A program made the translations under genes and the position numbers. From a virus: a stretch of 64,000 nucleotides of DNA. The notes below the pieces were generated by a model that made no database searches, was not told the DNA's origin, and saw only the letters and a list, made by a program, of their open reading frames with translations. The stretch is from the IMG/VR virus record IMGVR_UViG_3300023176_002545, one strand, 5' to 3'. Positions 2,175 to 2,510 of the stretch are shown here, in pieces (the first letter of the stretch is position 1; the number at the start of each line of letters is the position of its first letter).

Positions 2175-2246
2175 CTAGCGGTTCATTACATACATTGTTA
2201 CTTCGAAACCAAAACGCATTTCTTCTGCTATAGGTTTTGTCCACAT
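2175..2246 (-). CDS. pqqA: PQQ biosynthesis precursor peptide PqqA (23 aa, MWTKPIAEEMRFGFEVTMYVMNR)
   Basis: Hand-translated; absent from the ORF track. Strong RBS GAAAGGAG 6 nt upstream. Matches the PqqA pattern MW.KP....R.G.EVT.Y..NR, including the Glu-x3-Tyr pair that is cross-linked, and has the canonical length. Confidence 0.92.
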   Translation of the reverse strand: MWTKPIAEEMRFGFEVTMYVMNR

Positions 2247-2307
2247 ATGCTTCTCCTTTCAAATAATATTTAAACATAGATGAAAGGAAAAAGCATACGT
2301 AAAATCA

Positions 2308-2394
2308 TTAAAGACTGCTCAATATAAAATTGATTCTATTTCTTCGGTGCTGAATGATTAGTTGTTTGTAGCACCATAGTGTGAAGTTGTCCAT
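2308..2394 (-). CDS. Riboswitch-controlled 28-aa basic peptide (MDNFTLWCYKQLIIQHRRNRINFILSSL), function unknown
   Basis: Hand-translated. RBS UAGGAG 7 nt upstream of ATG, directly 3' of the glutamine riboswitch aptamer. Confidence 0.7.
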   Translation of the reverse strand: MDNFTLWCYKQLIIQHRRNRINFILSSL

Positions 2395-2423
2395 TACACT
2401 TCTCCTACTTAAAGGGTTAAAGT

Positions 2424-2466
2424 GCGTTCCTTCGCATTATGCTACTTCCGTCCCGTAGGATGAACG
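2424..2466 (-). ncRNA. Glutamine riboswitch (glnA RNA motif, glutamine-I class), minimal form
   Basis: Minus strand reads CGUUCA-UCC-UACG-GGA-CGGAAGUA-GCA-UAA-UGC-GAAGGAACGC: P1 CGUUC/GAACG, short P2 and P3 hairpins, and the CGGAAGUA...GAAG core of the glnA consensus. Confidence 0.85.
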
Positions 2467-2472
2467 TAAAAA

Positions 2473-2479
2473 TATTTAG
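2473..2479 (-). promoter_or_regulatory. Late promoter core (CTAAATA) for the riboswitch-peptide-pqqA transcript
   Basis: TAAATA lies immediately after the capsid terminator and 6-7 nt before the aptamer 5' end, consistent with late-promoter start-site spacing. Confidence 0.65.
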
Positions 2480-2481
2480 TC

Positions 2482-2510
2482 AAAAAAATAGGCCCCTAAG
2501 GGCCTATTTT
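2482..2510 (-). terminator. Rho-independent terminator after the major capsid gene (possibly bidirectional)
   Basis: AAAAUAGGCCC-UUAG-GGGCCUAUUUU plus UUU: 11-bp stem with A/U tails, about 22 nt after the capsid stop codon. Confidence 0.9.

Follow-up and report, generated by a model that had tools for sequence, protein, structure and literature searches.

A glutamine riboswitch before a small cysteine-peptide gene in a T4-like phage, and a covarying hairpin as its likely translational switch

We analysed a stretch of viral DNA of 64,000 nt (IMG/VR record IMGVR_UViG_3300023176_002545; hereafter the window). By family membership, an element on its minus strand is a type 1 (glnA-motif) glutamine riboswitch, and it is very likely a translational ON switch. 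We consider it likely that the switch acts on a 28-aa ORF directly behind the aptamer, through a hairpin that joins the 3′ tail of the aptamer to the end of the Shine-Dalgarno (SD) sequence and to the spacer before the start codon. The helix of this hairpin covaries among phage leaders. A different helix, made with the 5′ strand of the aptamer, had been put forward in a reading of the sequence alone; it probably names the wrong partner strand.

In an Rfam gathering scan of the whole window two families were found, RF01739 (glutamine riboswitch, glnA leader) and RF02980 (freshwater-2 RNA). The RF01739 match covers model positions 1-53 of 53 with an E-value of 2.4e-8, and its score, well above the gathering score (Table 1), bears out the glnA-motif membership for which the sequence-only reading had named the Rfam model as a check. 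All riboswitch features are on the minus strand. Each conserved base of the RF01739 core is intact in the window, and the conserved junction strands CGUUCA, GGACGGAAGUAG and CGAAGGAACGC are all present unchanged. The aptamer had been described as having 43 nt, with very short P2 and P3; we indeed count 43 nt from C2466 to the conserved C2424, and both P2 and P3, as read from the sequence, have 3 bp. With a range of 42-51 nt among 73 distinct phage aptamers, the window aptamer is compact yet ordinary for phages. P3 covaries among 71 phage leaders, one of its pairs being CG in 38, GC in 23 and AU in 10 of them, while P1 and P2 are invariable in this set by construction, as both were fixed by the search pattern.

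In the solved type 1 aptamer, glutamine recruits the junction base G23 into P1, where it pairs with C60, and this G23-C60 pair is ligand-dependent (PMC11477058). Mapped after that structure and after PMC6212724, the junction bases G2449 and G2448 together with C2424 are the equivalents of G22, G23 and C60. By sequence position, the bases for the ligand-dependent long-range pair are present in the window as G2448 and C2424, which are predicted to pair.

Table 1. Features of the riboswitch locus (window coordinates)
Feature	Position	Strand	Basis or remark
Terminator hairpin after gp23 major capsid gene, AAAAUAGGCCC-UUAG-GGGCCUAUUUU + U run	2485..2510	-	11-pair stem, 5 G-C pairs
CTAAATA box, read as T4-type late promoter	2473..2479	-	Sequence; predicted start ~A2467, one base before P1
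Glutamine riboswitch aptamer (RF01739)	2421..2468	-	51.3 bits; gathering score 35 bits
P1	C2466-C2462 with G2429-G2425	-	Read from sequence
P2 (UCC/GGA, UACG loop)	U2460-C2458 with G2453-A2451	-	Read from sequence
P3 (GCA/UGC, UAA loop)	G2442-A2440 with U2436-C2434	-	Read from sequence
Expression-platform hairpin, proposed OFF state	2397..2424	-	Local fold, covariation, RNAalifold
Alternative helix of the sequence-only reading: A2467-U2463 with A2400-U2396, U2460-C2455 with G2408-A2403	2396..2467	-	Sequence, MFE; excludes P1 and P2
Shine-Dalgarno AGGAG	2402..2406	-	Sequence; 7 nt before AUG (2394)
28-aa ORF (MDNFTLWCYKQL...)	2308..2394	-	Directly behind riboswitch
Second TAAATA box	2267..2272	-	Sequence; 15 nt before SD-led pqqA start region
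pqqA, 23-aa PQQ precursor peptide	2175..2246	-	PF08042, TIGR02107
Terminator after pqqA	2129-2112	-	Hairpin search

The genes upstream of the riboswitch encode a prohead protease-like protein, a scaffold-like protein and the gp23 major capsid protein (PF07068, E 1e-101); its nearest relatives in the phage collection, capsid proteins with ~70% identity, come from T4-like jumbo phages of 350-470 kb. The terminator hairpin after gp23 is palindromic and reads on both strands. T4-type late promoters have a TATAAATA-like box centred at -10, and transcription starts ~6 nt after the box. By analogy we infer that the CTAAATA box behind the terminator is such a late promoter, which would place the start of the window transcript at about A2467. 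Of ~100 distinct upstream regions of phage glutamine riboswitches, 44 have a TAAATA box whose end is 5-7 nt ahead of the C in CGUUC, and the layout of a terminator hairpin followed by the box recurs upstream of many related riboswitches. Across the whole window the CTAAATA 7-mer is not enriched (11 found, 18.5 expected). The aptamer ends 18 nt before the SD, and no intrinsic terminator was found in the window between the aptamer and the 28-aa ORF.

The window stretch was found in salt-marsh metagenomes and metatranscriptomes of 2018. Contigs from RNA libraries identical to the window cover 2240-2445 and 2326-2438; with a depth over 2240-2445 of only 3-4, possibly DNA carry-over, they are compatible with transcription across the 28-aa ORF and are no proof of it. 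The high depth of salt-marsh contigs over pqqA sums pqqA genes of other organisms, and their low or missing cover over 2088-2171 and 2256-2339 is uninformative.

The RF02980 match, full-length and with 76.6 bits against a gathering score of 49.9, lies at 1972-2055 of the minus strand. It forms the structured leader of a 146-aa head-decoration-like gene and has a TAAATA box at 2075-2070. Judged by this match, the leader is a described RNA family and not a new RNA.

The hairpin proposed as the expression platform starts at C2424, the base after P1. Its outer stem pairs C2424-A-C-U-U-U2419 with G2402-A-A-G-U-G2397, and its inner stem pairs C2415-C-U2413 with A2406-G-G2404, so that the predicted fold buries the entire spacer to 3 nt before the AUG, together with AGG and the final G of the SD. 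The local fold has -7.1 kcal/mol, a stability reached in only 0.8% of 247 control leaders. Among riboswitch leaders in general, the hairpins between the conserved C and the start codon have a mean energy of -7.64 kcal/mol, against -1.68 kcal/mol in the 247 controls (Mann-Whitney p 1.6e-36, a value overstated because the sequences are related).

The 71 distinct phage leaders, each taken from 3 nt ahead of P1 as far as the start codon and then aligned, support the pairing of tail with spacer. In this alignment 90.4% of the cells of the tail-spacer helix are paired, as compared with 30-64% when the partner is slid. The covariation score is 0.364 against 0.247 in shuffles (0/500), and 36 cells have double changes against 9.7 expected (0/500), the relatedness of the leaders meaning that these shuffle controls overstate significance. 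At one pair we observed UA in 35 leaders, CG in 33 and UG in 3, and never an unpaired combination. The G2397 column is G in 71/71 leaders at a position left free in the search pattern, while the invariance of the C after P1 in the set is by construction, that base having been fixed by the pattern. This C of the tail is paired downstream in the minimum free energy (MFE) fold of 65/71 leaders, and for 40 leaders of the ORF family to which the window belongs, the tail-spacer helix is the RNAalifold consensus.

Compensated variants of the helix precede unrelated ORF families: CACUU/AAGUG, CACCU/GGGUG and CACUC/GAGUG, and further CAUCU/AGAUG, CAAUCU/AGAUUG and GCGCCU/AGGUGC. GUG occurs in the spacer between SD and start in 68% of riboswitch leaders and in 1% of controls. 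Cellular leaders have the same design, with CGCCUC and GAGGCG at cyanobacterial DUF4278 genes and CAUCUUUU with AAGGAGAUG in SAR86. A cis-regulatory platform that links the aptamer to the ribosome-binding site (RBS) is present in the window in the form of this covarying hairpin.

A further complementarity was seen at the locus. The 3′ half of the aptamer (AAGUAG..GAAGG) can pair with codons 3-9 of the 28-aa ORF (2365-2447, minus strand; 14 pairs, -15.5 kcal/mol); of 400 other ORF starts, 0.25% pair as strongly (z -3.0). It was seen in the Cys-peptide family and in one other family; the RNAalifold consensus of 40 leaders does not keep it.

Type 1 glutamine riboswitches were found experimentally to be ON with glutamine, as shown for gifB of Synechocystis (Klahn et al. 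2018, PMC6212724), which supports the ON direction that the sequence-only reading had taken as established for glnA-motif riboswitches. Those authors postulated a pairing of the RBS with C68 (equivalent to C60) and the bases after it, and they called the mode of action unclear (PMC6212724). In the window the aptamer stands directly before the SD and AUG, with no terminator between; therefore, an RBS that is hidden when the ligand is absent is a sensible reading. The partner of the SD is best sought in the tail, since C2424 is at once the predicted partner of G2448 and the first base of the covarying hairpin, and this makes the tail-hairpin ON reading the best supported one.

The proposed mechanism would then be as follows. 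A late transcript of a T4-like jumbo phage would begin with a type 1 glutamine riboswitch, which would act on translation of the ORF that starts at 2394. Without glutamine, C2424-U2419 would pair with G2402-G2397 and CCU (2415-2413) with AGG (2406-2404), giving a hairpin of about -7 kcal/mol that hides the SD and the spacer. Once glutamine is bound, G2448 would take C2424 in the equivalent of the G23-C60 pair, the base of the hairpin would be lost and the SD would open, so that the 28-aa peptide would be made when glutamine is high. The nucleotide captured on glutamine binding would thus be the very base with which the SD-hiding hairpin begins.

Folding calculations temper this picture. Against a clean switch counts the small effect of the ligand as modelled by nearest-neighbour folding: blocking C2424 and the junction shifts the ensemble energy by only 0.7 kcal/mol, and the SD is still partly paired. 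Against the tail hairpin counts the best fold of the window leader, which contains the 5′-strand helix (-19.2 against -15.4 kcal/mol). When 30 nt of coding sequence are added to the leader, other folds win by ~10 kcal/mol.

The sequence-only reading had the RBS sequestered without glutamine and freed by the ligand, and in outline this holds: the element reads as a translational ON switch, with the aptamer adjoining SD and AUG and no terminator between them. What probably does not hold is the partner strand. In that model the OFF state is formed by ACGUUC-A-UCCUAC with GUAGGA-GA-AGUGU, and glutamine, by stabilizing P1 and P2, pulls the 5′ strand off the SD. Such a helix does exist in the window. 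UCCUAC (2460-2455) and GUAGGA (2408-2403) are perfectly complementary, just as had been claimed for this 6-bp core, and the extended strands ACGUUCAUCCUAC and GUAGGAGAAGUGU form 11/13 pairs with a 2x2 internal loop. The helix is a part of the MFE fold of the 88-nt leader, a fold that stands out little from shuffles (z-score -1.29). As a duplex it has -11.6 kcal/mol, one of the strongest values in a set of 90 riboswitch leaders. Two of these 90 reach that value, and so do 2.5% of 244 ordinary GGAG leaders taken from the same contigs and paired with the same 5′ strand; the strength of the helix is thus at the chance rate. Any SD can pair in part with the UCC of P2, and the spacer GUGU, which is conserved, is similar to the 3′ strand of P1.

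Comparison among leaders also speaks against the 5′ strand as the conserved partner. We observed no covariation of its helix in the 71 phage leaders: the share of paired cells is 73.2%, shuffles giving 72.3% (44/500), and the score is 0.138 as compared with 0.130 (32/500). In its inner part, CGUU and RGUG can formally still pair in 71/71 leaders by way of G-U pairs, which makes the conserved spacer compatible with this helix; still, the three outer pairs of the core (UAC/GUA) cannot form in 29, 56 and 39 leaders, and the closest relatives, with identical aptamers, carry CUAGGA, AUAGGA, CGAGGA or CAAGGA in place of GUAGGA. When leaders were folded singly, a helix of this type appeared in the MFE fold of only 2/71, the window being one of the two. 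The invariant 9-mer CGUUCAUCC, tried against SD regions as a discriminator, was rejected, riboswitch and control leaders having equal energies (-4.2 and -4.2 kcal/mol). Nor can a helix with the 5′ strand explain the covariation between tail and spacer columns (UA:35, CG:33). Taking these comparisons together, we judge the 5′-strand model unlikely. In the window phage its helix may form as well and deepen the OFF state, without being the conserved mechanism. An association by eye between the fourth base of P2 and the base before GGAG was inconsistent and was dropped.

A strain variant bears on both helices. In the salt-marsh runs, T>C at 2401 and C>T at 2408 (plus strand) co-occur, giving AAAUAGGAGGAGUG, as in one related locus (L061). 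The change of A2401 to G would close the internal loop of the 5′-strand helix, while the double variant removes its G2408-C2455 pair; the tail hairpin is kept through a U-G pair.

It may also be asked whether the element regulates translation at all. The aptamer could be carried over or decaying, with no regulatory role, or it could act on RNA stability or on transcription instead of translation initiation. The expression evidence is of little weight, and in thermodynamic models of the full mRNA the aptamer fold is not the favoured one, which leaves some room for such readings. Yet all conserved core positions are intact, no intrinsic terminator stands between the aptamer and the ORF, and dozens of diverged phages have kept the module of promoter box, aptamer, hairpin, SD and ORF; we therefore regard a non-regulatory or non-translational role as highly improbable.

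The small peptide encoded behind the switch has 39 distinct homologues behind glutamine riboswitches. An invariant Cys at position 8, aromatic residues at positions 4 and 7 and a basic centre mark the family, and most members have His, Tyr or Trp at position 16. Differences by codon position number 748, 795 and 1332, the third position varying most. A profile search of 1.84 billion representatives found 17 Cys-peptide clusters of 29-72 aa, and one database protein (P0006, 72 aa) is a head-to-tail fusion of two Cys-peptide copies. The 28-aa peptide had no match in Pfam, NCBIfam or PHROG. As to the inactivating factors of glutamine synthetase (GS), IF7 and IF17, neither the window peptide nor a 38-aa relative had a Pfam match to DUF4278; ORFs behind other phage riboswitches (YRGV type) gave weak DUF4278 matches of 19.9-23.2 bits, below the cut-off of 25.3. 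To call the Cys peptide a counterpart of the glutamine-induced GS inactivating factors is only an analogy.

On a betaproteobacterial MAG contig (L175:5820-6130, plus strand) we found two glutamine aptamers in tandem, together with a sigma-70-like promoter and an ORF of 46-48 aa related to the Cys peptides. The neighbours are cellular genes (LpoB, cytochrome c, PhyH), and the family is therefore not confined to phages. We also observed further families of small ORFs with no known Pfam domain behind phage glutamine riboswitches (L002, L007, L008, L024, L097, L113 and others), among further types a 64-aa product (MNRFDHLHK...GTSGY), a 50-aa product (MNYRDFELARKKER...DPRLQKI) and a 44-aa product ending in a CRCCC cluster.

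The gene that follows the peptide ORF in the window is pqqA, with 42.2 bits to PF08042 (cut-off 21.1) and 38.5 bits to TIGR02107 (cut-off 20), and its product has the E-x3-Y cross-link motif as EVTMY. Its DNA is 82-83% identical to unannotated stretches of the methylotroph phages MEP401/402, Venkman and P19250A. An earlier report describes viral pqqA (PMC7678222). Among the matches listed, pqqA follows the unit of riboswitch and peptide in the window and at 17 IMG/VR loci, and its spacing varies. In the window (61 nt) and at two further loci (L019, L063) it lies 61-84 nt behind the peptide ORF with its own TAAATA box and SD. At several others (including L023, L039 and L085) pqqA begins within the peptide ORF, the two sharing 4, 11 or 31 nt, and no promoter box separates them; at one locus (L102:541-693, minus strand) the peptide ORF is fused in frame to pqqA in a 51-aa product.

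It is conceivable that pqqA is the functional target and that the 28-aa ORF is mainly a leader, carrying ribosomes to pqqA or stabilizing the mRNA and tying PQQ supply to nitrogen status. The recurrence of pqqA behind the unit, the overlaps and the fusion speak for this reading, as do the lack of any terminator found between the 28-aa ORF and pqqA in the window and the RNA-library contig that spans 2240-2445. On the other side, pqqA of the window, with its distance from the peptide ORF, a strong SD and a TAAATA box that is probably its own late promoter, need not depend on the switch; most members of the peptide family, that of phage Melnitz included, have no pqqA behind them; and the peptide is conserved at the protein level, as its invariant Cys and third-position variation indicate. 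We find it quite improbable that pqqA is the main target. In some relatives pqqA is probably under the riboswitch, and this need not be the case in the window.

The repeated joining of the unit to pqqA in methylotroph phages points to a possible connection of nitrogen sensing with cofactor supply. One could speculate further that the Cys peptides (28-50 aa) form a new class of host-derived, glutamine-induced small regulators, functional counterparts of the cyanobacterial GS inactivating factors, which overlap or fusion has wired to pqqA in methylotroph phages; how much PQQ precursor is supplied for methanol oxidation in late infection would then depend on nitrogen status. As a whole this proposal is doubtful, and we offer it tentatively.

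The riboswitch itself is not a rarity. A strict pattern of the aptamer core was found in at least 120 IMG/VR contigs and in at least 120 contigs from cellular genomes, among them those of cyanobacteria, SAR86, SAR116 and Thiothrix. Glutamine riboswitches have been reported in Melnitz, in the pelagiphage Mosig, in a Prochlorococcus phage and in ten pelagimyophage genomes (Buchholz et al. 2022, PMC9004378); in the main text of Weinberg 2010 we found no glnA RNAs in cyanophages. The remark in the sequence-only reading that riboswitches are uncommon in phages thus fails for the glutamine class, which is already known and common in aquatic phages, and the window element is ordinary for aquatic T4-like phages.

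Tandem aptamers were observed in cellular contigs (L131, L140, L165, L166, L208, L211 and L228), where in the predicted fold the tail of the first, CAUUAUC, pairs with GGUAAUG in P3 of the second. This model suggests that the two sensors may be structurally coupled.

Among the closest described relatives is the riboswitch of Melnitz, a phage of Methylophilales. The two are 84% identical over aptamer, SD and AUG (blastn), the same peptide family stands behind both (in Melnitz MTLYQQWCYLKAQ..., 32 aa), and Melnitz, the pelagimyophages and the window phage are all T4-like phages of aquatic bacteria. They differ in context: the Melnitz element lies at the 3′ end of an annotated tmRNA and was read as controlling ssrA (PMC9004378), while the window element follows gp23 in a jumbo-phage lineage and has pqqA next to it. 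In the Melnitz sequence (L001, MZ577097; 3001-3169) we found the riboswitch, an SD (GGGGAG) and then an unannotated ORF for a 32-aa Cys peptide. In its place the record has an opposite-strand ORF annotated, and the aptamer is counted within ssrA. With a Cys-peptide ORF directly behind the riboswitch, the published control of tmRNA is doubtful; what the switch controls in Melnitz-like phages is most likely a gene for an overlooked peptide of 28-38 aa, not tmRNA.

The Glutamine-II riboswitch (Downstream-peptide motif, RF01704) has in common with the window element the sensing of glutamine, short ORFs downstream and related core sequences. It has a pseudoknot architecture, however, and the window matches RF01739, not RF01704.

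With the leader of Synechocystis gifB (IF17; PMC6212724) the window element shares the aptamer family and a place in the 5′-UTR before a gene for a small protein. P2 and P3 are shorter in the window, and the downstream protein is a 28-aa Cys peptide, not a DUF4278/IF17-like protein. The window element has the context of a phage late promoter, whereas gifB has a cellular promoter regulated by NtcA. The response to glutamine was demonstrated for gifB. The platform postulated there, the C after P1 and the following bases with the RBS, is the same as that proposed here, and the phage and cellular leaders lend comparative support, in the form of covariation, to a mechanism that was only postulated in the 2018 paper.
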